Origin: Acidimicrobiia bacterium
GTDB taxonomy: Bacteria > Actinomycetota > Acidimicrobiia > Spongiisociales > ZC4RG35
NCBI GenBank assembly: GCA_036556085.1
Contig: DATBKE010000170.1
Span: 1 to 55,720 of the forward strand
Reading direction: 5' to 3'
Length of the DNA stretch: 55,720 nt
Position numbers and translations under genes: made by a program. The notes beneath the pieces were generated by a model. It was not told where the DNA came from. It saw only the letters and a list, made by a program, of their open reading frames with translations, and made no database searches. Positions 46,901 to 55,720 of the stretch are shown piece after piece; position 1 is the stretch's first letter, and every line of letters starts with the position of its first letter.

Positions 46901-47916
46901 GCTACGGCCTCTCCCTCGCCACTGGAAAGCAGGTCGAGCTAGGAGAAGCGGTCGGGATCATGGCTGCGCAGTCCATCGGCGAACCGGGAACCCAGCTGAC
47001 CATGCGGACCTTCCATACCGGCGGGGTCGCCGGCGAGGACATCACCCATGGCTTGCCGAGGGTGGTCGAGCTGTTCGAAGCTCGTACTCCCAAGGGGAAG
47101 GCAGTGCTGGCCGAGGTTGGGGGACCGGTCCAGATCATCGACGACGACGAAGGAAAGCGGGTTGTGGTCGACGCCAAGGAGGGCGAGGCCGCCTACGGGG
47201 TCTCCCGGCGGGCCCGACTTCGCATCGCCGACGGCGATGTGATCGAGGCCGGCACCCAGCTCACCGAGGGTCCGTTGGATCCGAAGGAGGTCCTCGAGGT
47301 ACGCGGGGTCCGGGCAGCTCAGCAGTATCTGGTCGACCAGGTGCAGGAGGTGTACCGCTCTCAGGGGGTGGAGATCCACGACAAGCACATCGAGTTGATC
47401 GTCCGCCAGATGCTCCGCCGGATCAGGGTGGTGAACCCGGGCGACTCCGAGTTCATGCCGGCCGAGCTGGTCGATGAGCGCGATTTCCGCGATGCCAACC
47501 GGCGCCTGCTCGAGGATGAGAAGCAGCCAGCAGAAGGCCGGACGGAGCTCATGGGGATCACCAAGGCCTCACTGGCCACCGACTCCTGGCTCTCGGCTGC
47601 CTCCTTCCAGGAGACCACCCGGGTGCTGACCGATGCCGCCATCTTTGGCAAGTCGGACTACATGCGGGGTCTCAAGGAGAACGTGATCATCGGTCGATTG
47701 ATCCCGGCGGGAACCGGGGCTGCCGACTACCAGTCGCTGCAGCCCAATTTGCCGGGAGCGACCACCGTGGAATCGCTCGGCTGGCAGTTCGGGCCCCGGG
47801 AGCGGGAATGGACGGCCGAAGAGGCAGCCAATTGGCTGCGGGCCGGAGGCAACTCCGACGAAGACTTTGACTTCGCGGCGGACGTCGACTTCGAAGAGAG
47901 CGACGAGGACGAATAG
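43978..47916 (+). CDS. rpoC: DNA-directed RNA polymerase subunit beta-prime
   Basis: Zn finger CYCGKYK...CERCGV, catalytic [29 protein letters not shown]; actinobacterial coiled-coil insertion. Confidence 0.99.
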
Positions 47917-48487
47917 CGATCTGACCATCGTCCCGGTCACCCCGGGGCGATGGTCGGATCTGGAGTCCCTCTTCGGTCCTAACGGGGCCTATTCGAACTG
48001 TTGGTGCACCTGGTGGATCCTCACCGGCAAGGAGTTCTCTGAAGCGCTTCCCAGCGAACGCCGAGCGTTGCTCACCGAGCTGGTCGCCGACGGTCAGAGG
48101 CCGGGCCTCCTGGCATACCGCGACCGTCAACCCGTTGGCTGGTGCGCGGTGGGCCCGCGGCAGCGGTACACCCGGATGATGTCGCCACGATCACAGGTGT
48201 ATCGGCCGGTCGACGACGTCCAGGGCAATTGGGTGATCAATTGCTTCTACATCGACCGATCCCATCGCGGAACCGGAATTGCCACGGAACTGCTGGGGGC
48301 GGCTATCGCCTTTGCGCGCAAGTCGAAGGCACGGACGCTCGATGGCTATCCGTTGCTCGACGACAGCCACGGATCCTCGTCCCTGTATGTCGGGACCTAC
48401 TCGATGTTCGAGAACGCCGGGTTCACAGAGATTTCGCGGGTTCGCGACCGTCCGCTGATGCGGCTCCGGCTAACGGGAGAGAGCTGA
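47867..48487 (+). CDS. GNAT-family N-acetyltransferase
   Basis: [51 protein letters not shown]. Start ambiguous: TTG 47867 inside rpoC, ACG 47909 or CTG 47921. Confidence 0.88.
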
Positions 48488-49426
48488 CGCGAGAGAATTG
48501 CGGGCGATCGTCTCCAACTCGTCCCGAGTGAGTTCGAGGGCTTCTGCGACCCTGACGTAGTTGTCCCCGATATAGCCACCGAAGTAGGCGGGATCGTCGG
48601 AGTTGATCGAAACGTTGAGGCCGAGCTCGAGCATACGGGCAAGGGGATGCCGGTCCAACGAAGGCACCACCTGCAATCTCTCGTTCGAGAGCGGGCAAAC
48701 GGTGAGTGGAATCTGCTCGTCGCCGAGCCGCTTCACCAGATCGGGATCTTCGAGCGAGCGCACGCCGTGGTCGATTCGCTCGGCGCCGAGGAGATCGAGT
48801 GCCTGCCAGACATATTCGGGGGGACCTTCTTCGCCCGCATGAGCAACCGTTCGCAAACCCATGCTGCGAGCTCGAGCGAAGGCGTTCTTGAACTTCTCCG
48901 GGGGGTAACCGACTTCAGACGAGTCGAGGCCGACAGCCAGGATCTGGTCGAGATGTGGTTCCGCCAAATCGAGAGTGCGCACGGCGTCTTCCTCCGGGAG
49001 ATGGCGGAGAAAACACAGGATCAAGGCCGAATCGATTGTTCCGGCGAATTGTTGCTGTGCCGAGTGGAACCCGGCCATGAAGGTTTCAAAACCGACTCCG
49101 CGATTCAGATGGGCCTGGGGGTCGAAGAAGATCTCGGCCCGGGTGACACCATCGGCGGCGGCCCTTAGGAGGTAGGCGGAGAGCAGGTCGGCGTAGTCCT
49201 CTTCCGTCTGCAGAACGGCCGCTCCCCGGTAGTAGATGTCGAGAAAGGATTGGAGGTTGGAGAACTCATACGCCCGGCGGGCGTCCGCGACGGTGGCGAA
49301 GGGGAGCTCGACCCGGTTGCGACGAGCGAGGGAAAACATGAGCTCGGGTTCAAGCGTGCCTTCAATGTGGACGTGCAGCTCGGCTTTCGGCAGGGCCCGG
49401 ACGAAGCCACCGATCTCCTCTGACAT
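48470..49426 (-). CDS. add: Adenine/adenosine deaminase (amidohydrolase; adenine-deaminase-like subgroup)
   Basis: LPKAELHVHIEGTLEP, EIFFDPQAH, HAGEEGP, RIDHGVR, TVCPLSN, NSDDPAYFGGY. Confidence 0.93.
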   Translation of the reverse strand: MSEEIGGFVRALPKAELHVHIEGTLEPELMFSLARRNRVELPFATVADARRAYEFSNLQSFLDIYYRGAAVLQTEEDYADLLSAYLLRAAADGVTRAEIFFDPQAHLNRGVGFETFMAGFHSAQQQFAGTIDSALILCFLRHLPEEDAVRTLDLAEPHLDQILAVGLDSSEVGYPPEKFKNAFARARSMGLRTVAHAGEEGPPEYVWQALDLLGAERIDHGVRSLEDPDLVKRLGDEQIPLTVCPLSNERLQVVPSLDRHPLARMLELGLNVSINSDDPAYFGGYIGDNYVRVAEALELTRDELETIARNSLASALSR

Positions 49427-49446
49427 GCCGGGACGGTAGCGAGGTC

Positions 49447-51645
49447 TCAGGCGACCAGGCCGGCGAGGACCCGGGAGGGTGTCAGGGGCAGTTGGTGAAA
49501 CCAAACCCCGGTGGCATCGTGGAGGGCGGCCACAACCGCCGCTGCATAGGGGACGAGAGGCATCTCCGCCATCCCACGTACCCCCCAGGGCCCGCGAGGG
49601 TCGGGGTGTTCGAGGAGGATGGTGCGCACCACGGCGGGGATGTCATCGATGCCAGGGATGAGATAGGCCGAGAGGCGAGGATTGGTGATGCGAGCGTCCT
49701 TGACCTGCAGGTCCTCGGTAATGGTGTATCCATGCGCTTGGACAATCGCTCCTTCGACCTGTCCCTCGGCCAGCGTCCGATTTATCACCCGGCCGACGTC
49801 GTTGGCACAGATAACCCGGTCGACCCGTATATGGCCGGTCTCTATATCGACTGATAAATCCACCACTTCGGCCACGTATCCGTAGGCGAAGTTGGGCTGT
49901 CCCTCTCCGGTAACGGGGTCCAGGGTCTGAGTGGGCGGGGGGACAAATCGGAATTGGCCTCGGGCCGGGCGCTCGCCGTCGATCCACTTCTTGGTCGCTT
50001 CCTCCACCGCCCCGAGGATGGAGTTGCCTGACATCCAGGTGAGCCTGGAGGCCGACGCCGAGCCGGAGTCGCCGGAGGTAGCCGTGTCGGAATAGACGGC
50101 TTCCACCTGTTCGTAATCGATGCCGATGGCCATCGCTGCCATCTGGCGCAGGGCGGTGTGAGACCCCTGGCCAACCTCAGCTGCGCCGTGGTAAAGGATC
50201 GCCCGTTCGACCTCATCTTCTCCGAAGAGCTCCACCGTCGCCTCGCAACGCTCCGGGAATCCGAACGAGAAGCCGACGTTCTTGTATCCGCAGGCGAATC
50301 CCCTGCCCCGGCGGATGGCGCGTTCTTCGACGGGAAGGGTGGCAACAGGACGCAACGTCCCCACCTCGAAATCCTCGGAGGCGGCTGCAGCCGCCGCTTC
50401 GATCACCGAAGGGAGGCTTACCCCGAGAGGCATTTCCGCCTGGGTGATGCCAATCGATCCGTCACGGAGGCTATTCAGCAAGCGCACTTCGATCGGGTCC
50501 ATGTCCAGCGCCTGCGCCAGTTTGTTCATCTGGGTCTCTGCCACCAGCGCTCCCTGCGGGGCACCGAATCCGCGAAAGGCCCCTCCGGGGACGGCGTTGG
50601 TGTAGACGGCGTAGCTATCGATGCGAGCGTTGGGAATCTCGTAGGGACCACCCACGCATAGATGCAGATTGCCGAGCACCTTGTTCGACGTGTAGTTGTA
50701 CCCACCCGCATCGAGATAACAATCAGCCTCGACCGCGACGATCTTTCCGTCGCGCCTCGCCCCCAGTCGGGCCTTGATCCGGCCCCGGTGACGCTTGTGA
50801 TGTCCGACGATGCTTTCCTCCCGCGACCATTGACAGCGAATCGGCCGACGGATCCCGCGCCCGGCCAGCTTGCGCGCCGCCGCGGCCAGGACGATCTGCA
50901 TCGACATGTCCTCCCGGCCTCCGAAGGCGCCACCGATGGCCGGGTATTTGACACGAACCGCTTCCGTCGGGAGATCGAGGGCATGAGCGATTTGCTCCTG
51001 GTCCTCGACTGTCCACTGGCCGGCGATCTCGACCGTCACCCGACCCTCTTCGTCGATGTAGGAGATCGCCGCCTCGGGCTGAAGGAAGGCGTGCTCCTGA
51101 TAGGGCACCTCATAAGTTCCCTCGATCACCACCTCGGCTTGGGACCATCCGGCGTCGATGTCACCTTTTCGGATTCGCAGGTGGTGGTAGGCATTGGTGT
51201 CCAGGCCGTTCTCGGGGTGGAGCATCACCCGGGACTGGAGGGAGGTGTCGATGTCGCCCAGGATCGGAAGCTCCTCCCATTCGACTTCGATGGCGGCTGC
51301 CCCTGCCCGCGCCGCCTCGACGCTATCGGCGATGACCACGCAAAGCTGATCTGCCTCCCAACGCGAGATGTTCTCGGCGACGGAGGTGAGTTCGTTGCCG
51401 AGGCCGATCAGCACCGGTTGATCCCGAAAGACCAGCCCGTATTCGTTGACCGGAATGTCGGAGGCGGTGAGGATCTCCACCACTCCTGGTAGCGCCAAGG
51501 CTCGATCGACCTCCAGCCTGACGAGCCGAGCATGCGGCTGATCGGTGAAGACGATGTGGGCATGGAGGAAGTCGGGATGAATGATGTCGGCCGGGAAGAG
51601 AGCTGTGCCCGTGACCTTCGCGGGCCCATCGAGGCGTTGGGTCAT
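49447..51645 (-). CDS. Xanthine-dehydrogenase-family molybdopterin-binding subunit
   Basis: AKVTG, QEHAFLQPE, IGGAFGGRE, GAFRGFG, GAAEVGQGSHT, GSASASR, RGMAEMP (catalytic Glu). Start at ATG 51645 with ATGA overlap. Confidence 0.93.
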   Translation of the reverse strand: MTQRLDGPAKVTGTALFPADIIHPDFLHAHIVFTDQPHARLVRLEVDRALALPGVVEILTASDIPVNEYGLVFRDQPVLIGLGNELTSVAENISRWEADQLCVVIADSVEAARAGAAAIEVEWEELPILGDIDTSLQSRVMLHPENGLDTNAYHHLRIRKGDIDAGWSQAEVVIEGTYEVPYQEHAFLQPEAAISYIDEEGRVTVEIAGQWTVEDQEQIAHALDLPTEAVRVKYPAIGGAFGGREDMSMQIVLAAAARKLAGRGIRRPIRCQWSREESIVGHHKRHRGRIKARLGARRDGKIVAVEADCYLDAGGYNYTSNKVLGNLHLCVGGPYEIPNARIDSYAVYTNAVPGGAFRGFGAPQGALVAETQMNKLAQALDMDPIEVRLLNSLRDGSIGITQAEMPLGVSLPSVIEAAAAAASEDFEVGTLRPVATLPVEERAIRRGRGFACGYKNVGFSFGFPERCEATVELFGEDEVERAILYHGAAEVGQGSHTALRQMAAMAIGIDYEQVEAVYSDTATSGDSGSASASRLTWMSGNSILGAVEEATKKWIDGERPARGQFRFVPPPTQTLDPVTGEGQPNFAYGYVAEVVDLSVDIETGHIRVDRVICANDVGRVINRTLAEGQVEGAIVQAHGYTITEDLQVKDARITNPRLSAYLIPGIDDIPAVVRTILLEHPDPRGPWGVRGMAEMPLVPYAAAVVAALHDATGVWFHQLPLTPSRVLAGLVA

Positions 51646-53033
51646 CCGCCCGCCGCCTGCTCCACTGCCGAGATGATCTTGTAGTAGCCGGTGCACCGAC
51701 AAAGATTCCCGGAGAGGGCGATGCGAATCTCGGCCGGTCCCGGCGCCGGCTTCTCCTCGAGCAGCTTCGCTCCCGACATCAAGAAGCCGGGAATGCAATA
51801 GCCACATTGCACCGAGCCTTGATCGAGAAACGCTTGCTGCAATGGATGGAGTCCGCCAACTGGCGCCAACCCCTCGATCGTGGTGATCGCTGCATCGGCT
51901 GCCCGCCCCGCCGGCACCAGGCAGGCCATGACCGCCACTCCGTCGAGGAAGATCGTGCATGCCCCGCACTCACCTTCGGCACATCCTTCCTTGCTGCCGG
52001 TCAGCCCGAGCTCCCGCAACCAGTCGAGCAGGGTTGAGTTGGAATCGGGCGGACTGCTCAGGGGCAGTCCGTTGACCGTCGTGAGGTTTGAGACAAATCG
52101 GCGCCGGCCCAGAGTCACCGGATCCCGGGGGAAGAATGCCGCCTGCTCGCCACCGGCTAGCGCCCGAAGCCCCCGCACTGTCATTCGCTCCAGTTCTGCC
52201 CTCCTATAGGCAGCGGTGGCGCGGACGTCGTCAATGGGCTTCGGACCCTCTGCCACCAGACGGGCGGCTTCGGCGATAGTGTCGGAACCGAGGCGCCTGC
52301 CCTGCAAGAACGCCTCGGCTTCCGGAGCGCGGATGATCGTGGGGGCGACGCTTCCGAGGGCAATCGCCGCCGAAGAGACCTCGTCGCCATCGAAGTCGAG
52401 CACCAGCGCCAGATGAATGACCGAAATCGCCTGGGCTTTGCGGAGTCCGACTTTGAGAAAAATCCCGCGCTCATCAGAGTCCATGGCCCGGACCCGAAGA
52501 CGGACGACCATCTCGTCGGGGGCCATGTCGATCTGGCGAACACCGCGGTGAAAATCGGCGAGATCCACCATCCGGCTGCCGGCCGTGGAGGCGATCTCGA
52601 GTGTCGCTCCCAGCGCCCGTAGTGGGGTAATGGTGTCGTTGGCCGGGGAGGCGGTGACCAAGTTCCCGACCACGGTCGCCCGGTTGCGAAGCTGCGGTGA
52701 GCCCACCTCCCAGCACGCCTGAGCGAGAGGGAGCGCCCGATCGACGACCGCCGAGGAGAGCACGATCTCGTTGTGGGTTACGCCCGCTCCAATGAGGATT
52801 TCCTCGCCGACCATCTCGATTCGCTGAAGCTCTTCCAAGCGACTGACGTCGATCAAGGTGTCAACCTCGGGCCGCTGACCTCGAGCCATCTCGAGCAACA
52901 AGTCGGTGCCTCCGGCGATGAGTCGAGCGCTTCCTCGATGGGCTCTCAGCATCTCCAGAGCCTCGGGAACCGAATTCGGCTGTAGATAACGCTCGAATCT
53001 CAGACGATGCTGCTGAACCTCGTGCAGCTTCAC
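51642..53033 (-). CDS. XDH-family FAD-binding subunit fused to a C-terminal 2x[2Fe-2S] subunit
   Basis: IAGGTDL, IRN-like LRNRATVVGN, DDVRATAAYR; then GCAEGECGACT..C, QCGYCIPG, NLCRCTGY. Confidence 0.93.
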   Translation of the reverse strand: MKLHEVQQHRLRFERYLQPNSVPEALEMLRAHRGSARLIAGGTDLLLEMARGQRPEVDTLIDVSRLEELQRIEMVGEEILIGAGVTHNEIVLSSAVVDRALPLAQACWEVGSPQLRNRATVVGNLVTASPANDTITPLRALGATLEIASTAGSRMVDLADFHRGVRQIDMAPDEMVVRLRVRAMDSDERGIFLKVGLRKAQAISVIHLALVLDFDGDEVSSAAIALGSVAPTIIRAPEAEAFLQGRRLGSDTIAEAARLVAEGPKPIDDVRATAAYRRAELERMTVRGLRALAGGEQAAFFPRDPVTLGRRRFVSNLTTVNGLPLSSPPDSNSTLLDWLRELGLTGSKEGCAEGECGACTIFLDGVAVMACLVPAGRAADAAITTIEGLAPVGGLHPLQQAFLDQGSVQCGYCIPGFLMSGAKLLEEKPAPGPAEIRIALSGNLCRCTGYYKIISAVEQAAGG

Positions 53034-53593
53034 CCCGCGGCCCGACCGTTGTAGATCACACCCCCGCTACGGGCATAGTCGGAGAGCAGGGCGGCGCCCT
53101 CAGCACGCTTCACCTCGCGGATCACCTCGACCCCCCTCCGTTCCAATCTCTCCACCCAGTCGGCCATTCGATCACCTTCCTCGAAGCCGATGGCGGCGGC
53201 GTCCTCGGTCCGGGCACCACAAACCAGTCGATGGACCCCGGACCAGGGAACGGCTCCCAGGCACATGGCGCAAGGGTCCGTGGAAGCAACCAGTTCGGTG
53301 GGACCGAGATCGAAACTTCCCACCACCCGACCGGCAATTCCTATCGCCATGATCTCGGCGTGGGCGGCGGCGATGTTCGAAGGCACCACGAGGTTGACGC
53401 CCGGGGCTAGCAAACGCCCGTCGCGGTCGAACACCGCGGCTCCGAATGGTCCGCCCGTTTCTCTCTCAAAGTTGTTCCGGGCCAGGCTGAAAGTGAAGTC
53501 GATCCGGTCCTCGATCGAGGGGTAAAGCGAGCCCGGCTCGCAGATGTCGTGGATCCAGGGCGGAAGTTCGAGGGCGAGGGCGGGAAACGTCAC
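53030..53593 (-). CDS. Zn-dependent nucleobase deaminase (guanine deaminase GuaD-like, CDA fold)
   Basis: GGPFGAAVF, HAE, PCAMC, IGFEEG. Confidence 0.85.
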   Translation of the reverse strand: MTFPALALELPPWIHDICEPGSLYPSIEDRIDFTFSLARNNFERETGGPFGAAVFDRDGRLLAPGVNLVVPSNIAAAHAEIMAIGIAGRVVGSFDLGPTELVASTDPCAMCLGAVPWSGVHRLVCGARTEDAAAIGFEEGDRMADWVERLERRGVEVIREVKRAEGAALLSDYARSGGVIYNGRAAG

Positions 53594-54429
53594 GAGTCGG
53601 AGATTTCGCCGTAGACCTCGGGGCGACGATCACGGTAGAACGCCCAGTGCCGTCGGACCTCTTCGATCAAAGTCATATCGAGGTCCCTGATCACTACCTC
53701 GTCCTTCGTATCGGAGCCTGTTCCGTCGATGATCTGACCCCGCGGCGTGCAGAAGTACGAGGAGCCGTAATAGTCGGTGTCGGAAAGATTCTCCCGGCCG
53801 ACCCGATTGATAGCCCCCACGAAGTATTCGTTTGCAACGGCAGCTGCCGGTTGCTCGAGCTCCCACAGATATTTGGAATGTCCCCTGGTGGTGGCCGAGG
53901 GATTGAAGACCACCTTGGCCCCCTTCAACCCCAGCACCCGCCAGCCTTCCGGGAAATGGCGGTCGTAGCAGATGTAGACCCCGATCCGGCCAATTGCGGT
54001 GTCGAATACCGGATAGCCGAGGTTCCCCGGCCGAAAATAGAACTTCTCCCAAAACCCTTCGACCTGGGGAATGTGGGTCTTGCGATACATCCCCAGGAAA
54101 GAGCCATCGGCATCGACGACGGCGGCGGTGTTGTAGAACGTGCCCTCGTCCACTTTCTCATAGATGGGTGCGATCACGACCATTCCCGTCTCGCGGGCAA
54201 GGTCGACGACGCGTGAGATGGTCGGACCCGAAGGAACCTCCTCGGCCGTGTCATAGAACTTGGCGTCCTGGACGTTGCAGAAATACGGAGTGGTGAAGAT
54301 CTCCTGAAAGCACAGGACTTGGGCCCCGTCGGCCGCGGCCTTGCGGGCGTATTCGAGGTTCTTCTCGATCATCGATTCCTTCTCACCGGTCCACTCGGAC
54401 TGGACCAGGGCGGCTCGAACCACCGTCAT
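53590..54429 (-). CDS. Nitrilase-superfamily C-N hydrolase (beta-ureidopropionase / N-carbamoylase-like)
   Basis: Triad: FQEIF (Glu), YRKTHIP (Lys), YICYDRHFPEG (Cys); FWEKFYFRPGN. Confidence 0.9.
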   Translation of the reverse strand: MTVVRAALVQSEWTGEKESMIEKNLEYARKAAADGAQVLCFQEIFTTPYFCNVQDAKFYDTAEEVPSGPTISRVVDLARETGMVVIAPIYEKVDEGTFYNTAAVVDADGSFLGMYRKTHIPQVEGFWEKFYFRPGNLGYPVFDTAIGRIGVYICYDRHFPEGWRVLGLKGAKVVFNPSATTRGHSKYLWELEQPAAAVANEYFVGAINRVGRENLSDTDYYGSSYFCTPRGQIIDGTGSDTKDEVVIRDLDMTLIEEVRRHWAFYRDRRPEVYGEISDS

Positions 54430-54453
54430 AGTCGGGCGAGTGTAGGAATCACC

Positions 54454-55575
54454 TCAGGGGCCGCTTCGTTGGCGACCGGTGAAGAACACCACGATGTGGT
54501 CGTCACTCGTGTAACCCTCGGCGATAGTTGGATCCAAGAGCGCGGCCAGCCCGGCGGTGCCGGTGTGATCGGCGGCGATCTGAGTTTCTGCGAGCGCGAG
54601 ACGATGACCACTTTCCACGAGGCTCTCGGGGATCACATGCGGTCGGCCGCCCGAGGCCAGCATCGCTTCCACCACCGGCAACCAGTCGTAGGTGACGTCG
54701 TCGAGGATGCCTGACGCCTTCGAGCTACCAACGTTCTCCCAGGCCCACATGAATTTGTTAGGGGTCGAGCGAGCATTTTCCGCCTGCTCCAGGCGGTCCT
54801 CGGAAGTCTCCCGCAACAGCCGCCACGCCCGGTTCAGTGGCGCCGAGGATTCGGTTTGAACGGTGTTGAGCACTGGATCGGCCGATAACCATTGCTCGCG
54901 GATGCCCTCGTTGATGCCCTGCCAGATCGATGCGGCCAGCGCCCCACCACCGACCTGAACGAAAAGCGCCACCGACCCCTCGACTCGGGCGAGGGCGAGC
55001 TGCTCGGCTAGCTCCCAACCGATCGTGCGGCCTCCATCGAGGGCGGTGGGCGTGAACGGCCCTTGCACCGAGAAGGGAGTGGCTCCCTTGCGGATCGCTC
55101 GTTGCATGTCCTCGACCGTGGGATCTCCGACCGTTGAGTCGGTGCGCTTACTCACCACCACCCTGGCGTCCAGCTCCTTGAGTGCGGAGGTGATCGAACG
55201 GTCTGCCCAGGTGGGGACGAAGACCTGGATCGGACGCCGGGCGGCCTTGGCGACCACAGCCGCGGCGAGAGCGGCGTTGCCGCACGAGGCAATTGCGAGG
55301 TCGCCGCTCGGGCTCTCCTCAACCGCCAGGTGGAGCATGGTTCCGAACAGGTGGCGGGCCTTGTGCGAGCCACCCACGTTGTCTGTGTCGTCTTTGACCC
55401 AAAGGCTTGCCTCCAGCCCGAGGGCTGCACCCAAGCGGGGCTGGCGGGTCAATGGAGTGATCGAGAATCCGTGGCCCGCAACCTCGGCAACGTCGCGGTT
55501 GAGGCCCTCGACGAGTTCGACGAACCTTTGATCGCTCCATCCGGCCGAGATCGCCTTCCGATACGAATCGAGCAT
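54454..55575 (-). CDS. Fold-type II PLP-dependent enzyme (threonine synthase / ammonia-lyase-like)
   Basis: VKDDTDNVGGSHKARH (PLP Lys), ASCGNAA, VQVGGGALA. Frame stays open upstream through NPFIRYR to a candidate ACG start at 55620. Confidence 0.85.
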   Translation of the reverse strand: MLDSYRKAISAGWSDQRFVELVEGLNRDVAEVAGHGFSITPLTRQPRLGAALGLEASLWVKDDTDNVGGSHKARHLFGTMLHLAVEESPSGDLAIASCGNAALAAAVVAKAARRPIQVFVPTWADRSITSALKELDARVVVSKRTDSTVGDPTVEDMQRAIRKGATPFSVQGPFTPTALDGGRTIGWELAEQLALARVEGSVALFVQVGGGALAASIWQGINEGIREQWLSADPVLNTVQTESSAPLNRAWRLLRETSEDRLEQAENARSTPNKFMWAWENVGSSKASGILDDVTYDWLPVVEAMLASGGRPHVIPESLVESGHRLALAETQIAADHTGTAGLAALLDPTIAEGYTSDDHIVVFFTGRQRSGP

Positions 55576-55612
55576 CCATCGATACCGGATGAAAGGATTG
55601 GCGCTCTCGCCT

Positions 55613-55720
55613 CTACTCGTGGCTGACTCCCGTTCGCTCGTTGAACTCGTCGATCAGAGCGTCCCATCGAACCAGGAAAGGTCGCAACCCCTGCCACCAC
55701 GCCTGTTCCCGGCGCGCTTC
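55613..55720 (-). CDS. C-terminal fragment of the upstream gene, probably a second PLP-dependent enzyme of the cluster
   Basis: Open frame EARREQAWWQGLRPFLVRWDALIDEFNERTGVSHE*; the DxLIxEFNERTG ending is recalled from PLP enzymes in xdh-linked clusters, not verified. Confidence 0.45.
   Translation of the reverse strand, partial: EARREQAWWQGLRPFLVRWDALIDEFNERTGVSHE

Follow-up and report, generated by a model that had tools for sequence, protein, structure and literature searches.

A divergent gene cluster of Acidimicrobiia proposed to degrade purines through 2,8-dioxopurine, with nitrilases, a pair of PLP enzymes and an F420 enzyme at four of its steps

The window analysed here is a stretch of 55,720 nucleotides (GenBank DATBKE010000170.1) and comprises contig C170 in full, from a 2.76-Mb Acidimicrobiia metagenome-assembled genome (MAG) whose completeness is 92.8%. 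It ends in a run of seven minus-strand genes, which we read as one of the two divergent arms of a 13-gene cluster for purine catabolism through 2,8-dioxopurine. In this cluster nitrilases would replace YgeW and YgeY, a pair of pyridoxal phosphate (PLP) enzymes YgeX, and an F420 enzyme YgfK. We consider this reading probable (roughly 70%). Gene content, gene order, family assignments and co-occurrence are read directly from the genomes; from these we infer all the substrates. The initial annotation of the window had proposed an O2-independent variant of the xdh-ssnA-hyuA-ygeWXY route of purine degradation, and the linkage to ssnA, the co-occurrence of genes across genomes and the lack of uricase bear this out, with the qualification that the host genome encodes cytochrome oxidase subunit I, which means that the host is not an obligate anaerobe. 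The genes of the window arm, and the overlap that connects it to the other arm, are as follows.

55614..55720, minus strand: PALP-A, 35 codons from the 3' end of a cut gene for a 488-residue cysteine-synthase-like PLP enzyme of fold type II; the remainder is on contig C97.
54454..55575, minus strand: PALP-B, 373 residues, from the Thr/Ser dehydratase, Thr synthase and racemase group of fold type II PLP enzymes; the PLP lysine is Lys72.
53590..54429, minus strand: beta-ureidopropionase paralog of the nitrilase family (CN_hydrolase), 279 residues, with Glu43, Lys117 and Cys154.
53030..53593, minus strand: NE0047-type guanine deaminase of cytidine-deaminase fold, 187 residues, with specificity residues and C-terminal lid kept.
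51642..53033, minus strand: fusion of a flavin adenine dinucleotide (FAD) domain and two [2Fe-2S] domains, 463 residues, assigned by profile matches to the molybdenum (Mo) hydroxylases of the xanthine dehydrogenase family.
49447..51645, minus strand: PucD-like Mo-cofactor subunit, 732 residues, judged from its active-site residues a probable (hypo)xanthine hydroxylase.
48470..49426, minus strand: adenine deaminase of adenosine-deaminase fold (3OU8 type), 318 residues, assigned with NF006850 and PDB 3OU8.
55094..55720, no strand: overlap of 627 bp with contig C97, 97% identical, which joins the operon to the divergent arm.

All seven genes are found, in the order initially claimed. From PALP-A to adenine deaminase the junctions measure 38, 24, −4, −4, −4 and 20 bp: five of them are within the 24 bp first stated, but the first one, counted to the first ATG of PALP-B, is not. 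The description of the cut gene as a PLP enzyme holds by virtue of the overlap with C97, which completes it to the 488-residue protein, whereas the 35-residue piece itself has no PLP motif. Four independent assemblies share this gene order, which shows that the run is not due to chance. Almost all the differences between 55094-55720 and C97:1-627 are silent, which suggests that the assembly was broken here by strain variants.

The other arm begins on C97, which overlaps the window end, and continues on contig C118; the loci L003, L004, L019 and L020 carry the entire cluster on one piece. The genes of this arm encode, in order, a SerA-like dehydrogenase, a DUF1015 protein, a second nitrilase, a fusion of Fe-S and Mo parts that has no FAD domain, an amidohydrolase resembling SsnA and a luciferase-like monooxygenase (LLM) of F420 type, the last two on C118. 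An ssnA-like gene, as had been expected beyond position 55720, lies about 9 kb past that point in syntenic loci. Among family models, SsnA fits the amidohydrolase best by a wide margin (E 2e-72, versus about 1e-21 for the next family), and the protein is the best match of E. coli SsnA in the host genome. The second nitrilase matches N-carbamoyl-D-amino-acid hydrolase (DCase; PDB 6LEI, 1FO6) over its full length, with E 2.4e-116. The best model for the FAD-less fusion is TIGR03311, of the selenium-dependent xanthine dehydrogenase (Se-XDH) type; the full-length relative in L004 scores 793 bits against a cut-off of 830, the next model reaching 457. This enzyme beside ssnA appears to be of the type of the dehydrogenase of 2,8-dioxopurine (DOPDH) and of XdhAC, judging from an alignment in which the equivalents of Glu802 and Arg880 are kept. 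The host has an F420 ligase, and the F420-type LLM follows ssnA in the place of YgfK; SelD is also present, above cut-off. The SerA-like dehydrogenase, which has an ACT domain, and the DUF1015 protein, with its DGHHR motif, are inserted at the head of the arm (L009, on C97, 2015-4338); this insertion is seen only in the host lineage and L020, and the pair in just 4 of the loci compared.

In the pathway that we propose, purines would be converted to urate by the deaminases and the Mo hydroxylase of the window, and urate to 2,8-dioxopurine by the FAD-less Mo enzyme of C97. The F420 reductase and SsnA would then form ureidomethylhydantoin, which a D-hydantoinase borrowed from outside the cluster would open to (R)-diureidopropionate. 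DCase may convert the latter to D-albizziin, and the window nitrilase D-albizziin to D-diaminopropionate, which the PLP pair would turn into pyruvate. (R)-diureidopropionate is indeed the intermediate of the published pathway (10.1101/2025.04.24.650524). The chemistry fits the enzymes: this compound belongs to the N-carbamoyl-D-amino acids, and albizziin can be written as alpha-amino-beta-ureidopropionate. With hydrolases in the place of a carbamoyltransferase and carbamate kinase, no ATP would be gained, and the route would serve nitrogen and carbon scavenging.

Uricase, 5-hydroxyisourate (HIU) hydrolase and 2-oxo-4-hydroxy-4-carboxy-5-ureidoimidazoline (OHCU) decarboxylase are not found anywhere in the 92.8% complete host genome, with positive controls, so that no canonical uricase pathway is seen outside the window either. 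The search for allantoicase is uninformative, since no control genome gave a match. An M20 enzyme on C175 passes the NCBIfam cut-off for allantoate amidohydrolase and was considered as part of an allantoin route, but it is adjacent to a formimidoylglutamate deiminase and we read it as serving histidine use. As for the enzymes of the E. coli pathway, YgeW (TIGR03316) and YgeY (TIGR03526) have no model match in the host and only 22-26% matches by tblastn (UacY was not searched), YgeX has neither a TIGR01747 match at E<1e-40 nor a tblastn match, YgfK has no tblastn match, and YqeA is not found in this genome. One D-hydantoinase is encoded on C116 in a pyrimidine context (TIGR02033, 581 bits for a cut-off of 393; 41% identity to HyuA). 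A second match to HyuA and AllB, on C201, was discarded as a hydantoinase candidate because of its location in a pyr operon.

Co-occurrence was examined throughout in the same 201 Acidimicrobiia genomes. An SsnA-like protein is present in 69 of them and PALP-A in 61, all 61 with SsnA. The eight genomes that have SsnA but no PALP-A all have a YgeX-like gene, which is within about 2-22 kb of ssnA in seven cases, whereas only 6 of the 61 genomes with PALP-A have one. That the pair alternates with YgeX-like genes supports the earlier suggestion that divergent PLP enzymes take the place of YgeX. DCase is found in 53 genomes, 51 of which have SsnA. Among the SsnA-containing genomes, 16 of the 18 without DCase match the YgeW model as a carbamoyltransferase, all under the cut-off, compared with 9 of the 51 with DCase; YgeY exceeds its cut-off in a single genome, which lacks DCase. 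The proposal that the C-N hydrolase replaces YgeY and YgeW is supported as regards the hydrolytic exchange, but two nitrilases would be involved, not one. In the cluster loci that we read, two ureido-removing enzymes recur: DCase with a beta-ureidopropionase paralog, DCase with an M20 amidase, or two carbamoyltransferases with carbamate kinase. The neighbour of ssnA is YgfK-like in 18 loci and an LLM in 11, never both. Last, uricase is above cut-off in 15 of the 201 genomes, all from the host's family, and only two of these have SsnA, which suggests that the pathway stands in for uricase.

The order to which the host belongs also contains a second type of cluster (L082-L090, L134-L141), with carbamoyltransferases resembling aspartate and ornithine carbamoyltransferase, carbamate kinase, a ThrC-like protein that passes the thrC cut-offs, and a PALP-A at 44% identity; in this type both ureido groups probably yield ATP. 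Elsewhere, a single in-frame TGA is seen within the PALP-A match at G014:C1:2874099-2875571, and another within the DCase match at G037:C3:349229-350161.

The window nitrilase has the Glu-Lys-Cys triad and a sequence like that of beta-alanine synthases, which, along with N-carbamoylputrescine amidase, are its best PDB matches; with the model of the latter (AguB, TIGR03381) it scores 252 bits, under the cut-off of 410. It is 69% identical to the pyrimidine copy on C123. These likenesses would also suit a simpler explanation, in which this protein is an ordinary second pyrimidine beta-ureidopropionase and the operon a loose assortment of genes for nucleobase scavenging; family f14, whose cluster contains DCase and an M20 amidase but no second beta-ureidopropionase copy, could be cited in its favor. 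We regard this explanation as very unlikely. The host genome has a full and separate pyrimidine set on C116 and C123 (TIGR03842 LLM, D-hydantoinase, nitrilase paralog and aminotransferase), which likewise disfavours the joint purine/pyrimidine route that the initial annotation had left as an option. In the host's order, two beta-ureidopropionase copies occur in 19 of 19 genomes with both SsnA and DCase against 1 of 38 others; the second copy lies beside DCase or in the cluster and has fixed residues of its own, and in f14 it is the M20 amidase that occupies its place.

A tree of 37 nitrilase sequences, which has a midpoint root only, places in one clade (100/100, branch 0.26) the 15 copies that neighbor an aminotransferase or a hydantoinase, that of C123 included, while the 22 copies from urate clusters fall outside it. 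In this tree the window hydrolase separates as a paralog from the enzyme of the pyrimidine set. The cluster copies share Gln122, Thr181, His184, Thr218 and Asp243, where the others mostly have His, Ser, Leu, Asn and Glu. Positions 181-184 follow the FNPSAT motif, and the beta-alanine synthase of the fly has Leu at 184; it may be that the cluster-specific residues accommodate an alpha-amino group. We propose that the window nitrilase is a beta-ureidopropionase paralog specific to urate clusters, and a candidate albizziin (3-ureido) hydrolase.

Both PALP-A and PALP-B keep the PLP lysine and the binding loops, and both are confidently predicted to be of fold type II (the model of PALP-A has a pLDDT of 87.6). 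Fold searches place them in this class but do not discriminate function: the best matches of PALP-A are cysteine synthases (22-28% identity), while PALP-B gives top Z scores of 31-34 alike with dehydratases, threonine synthase, D-serine deaminase, racemases and YgeX (16-22% identity). PALP-B was considered as a threonine synthase and rejected: its best ThrC score is 78 bits for a cut-off of 303, and a canonical thrC is present on C81. In its alignment to 6CGQ, the NS..R and GNAGN stretches, which are phosphate-binding residues of threonine synthase, are replaced. The PLP enzyme is therefore unlikely to be a true threonine synthase, an identity that the initial annotation had named among the findings that would undermine its proposal.

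In YgeX, Lys77 and Asp120 are the proposed catalytic pair of diaminopropionate ammonia-lyase (PMC4000059). PALP-B keeps the lysine (Lys72) and has Cys98 in the column of Asp120, invariant in 60 sequences. By motif, Cys98 presumably stands also at the place of Ser84 of serine racemase. This serine is the second acid-base of the racemase (PMC6411801). The position of Cys98 in the alignment suggests an enzyme that may be able to deprotonate a D-amino acid.

In all 40 of the loci read, a second PALP, either PALP-B or the ThrC-like protein, is encoded within about 3.5 kb of PALP-A. The prediction of a complex of PALP-A with PALP-B scored 0.00, which is no evidence for or against pairing. Among four loci with distant PALP-A homologs, one is blank and the others place the gene beside a carbamoyltransferase, moaA or F420 biosynthesis genes; in L155 (3210-10296) the homolog directly follows a full run of F420 biosynthesis genes and has no PALP partner. 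These four loci thus establish no linkage outside Acidimicrobiia.

A single lyase step needs no pair of enzymes, and PALP-A folds like cysteine synthases, which catalyze beta-replacements. It could then be that the upper pathway is as we propose and that the PLP pair performs a beta-replacement or an elimination of urea, for example from albizziin to urea and pyruvate or from diaminopropionate to a serine-type product for the SerA-like and DUF1015 proteins, whose genes are within the host cluster. We consider this unlikely: a urea lyase would be redundant with the two ureido-removing enzymes, the pair alternates with YgeX-like genes, and the SerA-like and DUF1015 genes are confined to the few loci mentioned above.

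Regarding the upper steps, the adenine deaminase scores 480 bits with NF006850, above the cut-off of 419, and matches PDB 3OU8 with E 2.7e-113; we take 3OU8 to be the Pseudomonas adenine deaminase PA0148. The guanine deaminase matches NE0047 (2G84) with E 6.8e-41. In enzymes of this type, the residues for guanine deamination are F48, N66, E79, F141 and E143, together with a C-terminal lid (PMC9081823). The window protein keeps the lid and the equivalents Phe50, Asn67, Glu80, Phe137 and Glu139, so that the gene initially called guanine-deaminase-like indeed combines a dCMP/cytidine-type fold with the residues of guanine specificity. The Mo subunit of the window has orthologs in 18 genomes, all with SsnA. 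Its initial label of xanthine dehydrogenase stands insofar as the protein is PucD-like and keeps the equivalents of Glu802, Phe914, Phe1009 and Glu1261, but its scores and one active-site position do not agree with it, as detailed below; on its residues we consider it a probable xanthine dehydrogenase. The A1078T/S marker of DOPDH was tried as a way of telling the two Mo enzymes apart and abandoned, both having Ser/Thr. The host genome contains at least six Mo-hydroxylase large subunits (C26, C97, C109, C123, C170, C171).

Several observations weigh against the proposed pathway. The Mo subunit of the window reaches none of the xanthine dehydrogenase cut-offs (PucD, 494 bits for 784), and it has Asn for Arg880, as do 8 of 8 orthologs. 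The SsnA-like protein (340 residues) misses about 57 N-terminal residues and scores 230-244 bits, below the cut-offs (230 versus 455). YqeB and YqeC accompany the 2,8-dioxopurine pathway in every gut strain that has it (10.1101/2025.04.24.650524) but are not found in the 92.8% complete host genome. There is no hydantoinase within the cluster, and 7 of the 69 genomes with SsnA have none at E<1e-80. The complementarity between alternatives is incomplete, with 6 and 9 genomes holding both, and the sampled genomes are kin, so that the counts overstate the number of independent events. By fold comparison, neither PALP is nearer to YgeX than to other fold type II enzymes, and two PLP enzymes are more than the one step would need.

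The low scores of SsnA and of both Mo enzymes, the lost arginine and the lack of YqeB and YqeC could mean that the cluster acts on a related N-heterocycle (an oxidised purine, a pterin or a ureido-pyrimidine), or that it reaches 2,8-dioxopurine without urate; the orthologs of the C97 Mo enzyme, moreover, have Asn for Phe1009 in 24 of 24 sequences, a position at which Val is reported for DOPDH (10.1101/2025.04.24.650524). This alternative seems to us quite improbable, given that deaminases for adenine and guanine, their specificity residues intact, form part of the coupled operon, that SsnA and uricase are nearly exclusive, and that Arg880 is also missing from E. coli XdhA and XdhD.

The start of PALP-B deserves a comment. 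A conserved N-terminal motif is encoded in frame 5' of the first ATG (window 55620-55575, minus strand), and in four relatives every change within this extension is synonymous or conservative. There is no ATG, GTG or TTG in frame upstream in the window, but an ACG in the same frame at 55620, which overlaps the PALP-A stop, is conserved in 5 of 5 sequences (as GTG in L020). The alignment suggests that PALP-B probably starts at this non-canonical ACG, in which case its junction with PALP-A would become an overlap. A promoter scan of the gap between the divergent arms found nothing. On the other side, a GNAT acetyltransferase gene (47867-48487, plus strand) follows rpoC, and its 3' end overlaps the convergent adenine deaminase gene by 18 bp; rpoBC adjoins the cluster in all close relatives. 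In L019 (17877-18776) and L020 (17849-18766), but not in the window, the genes of the Mo subunit and of adenine deaminase are separated by an inserted MTES_1575-like (endonuclease-type) gene.

The nearest named relatives of the host are Acidimicrobiia MAGs. Between 89 and 94% of the words of the stretch are found in 20 soil or rhizosphere runs, one of which gives a single contig spanning 47800-53986 with 6 differences. In three soil metatranscriptomes, short contigs are dispersed across the operon; such contigs give no transcription, strand or level.

If our reading is true, a pathway of gut anaerobes extends to about one third of the sampled Acidimicrobiia (69/201 with the SsnA marker), surveys that score only the seven gut genes miss such clusters, and concrete enzymes can be named for four swapped steps. 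The order of ureido cleavage and its stereochemistry are listed as open by Percudani (PMC12990295). A D-specific alpha-N-carbamoylase together with a beta-ureido hydrolase, both simple and cofactor-free enzymes, would predict the sequence (R)-diureidopropionate, D-albizziin, D-diaminopropionate. More speculatively, and we put this forward as a tentative idea that is more doubtful than the pathway itself, the cluster may constitute a urate pathway that is hydrolytic throughout, linked to F420 and perhaps independent of selenium, in an O2-respiring soil bacterium, where PALP-A and PALP-B would carry out a hitherto undescribed two-enzyme chemistry on D-diaminopropionate (a cysteine-based fold type II racemase or lyase with a cysteine-synthase-like enzyme) and diureidopropionate would be the natural substrate of DCase.

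The 2,8-dioxopurine (reductive urate) pathway was solved in gut bacteria in 2025 (10.1101/2025.04.24.650524; PMC12507026). In E. coli and C. sporogenes the genes are xdhAC or xdhD-ygfM, ygfK, ssnA, hyuA, ygeW, ygeY, ygeX and yqeA. The present cluster resembles this set in having an SsnA-like protein beside a FAD-less enzyme of Se-XDH type, a second enzyme of the xanthine dehydrogenase family and purine deaminases upstream, ureido-removing and fold type II PLP enzymes downstream, and SelD in the genome. It differs in that YgfK, YgeW, YgeY, YgeX, YqeA and YqeB/C are not found, an F420-type LLM and a pair of nitrilases being present instead, along with two unrelated PLP enzymes, that the hydantoinase is outside the cluster, that there is no carbamoyl-phosphate/ATP step, and that the host is a soil organism with cytochrome oxidase. 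On YgfK, YgeW, YgeY and YgeX, the cluster is outside E. coli-type membership.

Published variants include UacX/UacY in C. difficile, a Chloroflexota cluster with a putative F420 reductase of the luciferase family, and SsnA in Actinomycetota (PMC12507026). Hydrolytic removal of the 2-ureido group would thus be shared with C. difficile, and an LLM reductase beside ssnA with Chloroflexota; unlike the enzyme proposed here, UacY is an amidohydrolase (PF07969) and not a nitrilase, and C. difficile keeps YgeY. That survey scores any PF00291 neighbour as YgeX, and the terms "nitrilase", "cysteine synthase" and "threonine synthase" do not occur in it (PMC12507026). We found no description of the two-nitrilase and PLP-pair exchanges in the literature searched, which leaves out most subscription papers. 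While the F420 and hydrolytic UacY exchanges are already published, those of the nitrilases and of the PLP pair are apparently new.

The logic of reducing, opening and decarbamoylating is that of the reductive pyrimidine set in actinobacteria (an LLM of TIGR03842, a dihydropyrimidinase, a beta-ureidopropionase of nitrilase type and a class III aminotransferase), but in the host that set is separate, on C116 and C123, and the window nitrilase is outside its clade. The pair of D-hydantoinase and DCase is known mainly from the industrial production of D-amino acids. The C97 nitrilase matches the DCase of this pair over its full length, and the association of DCase with ssnA in 51 of 53 genomes suggests a natural substrate for it.

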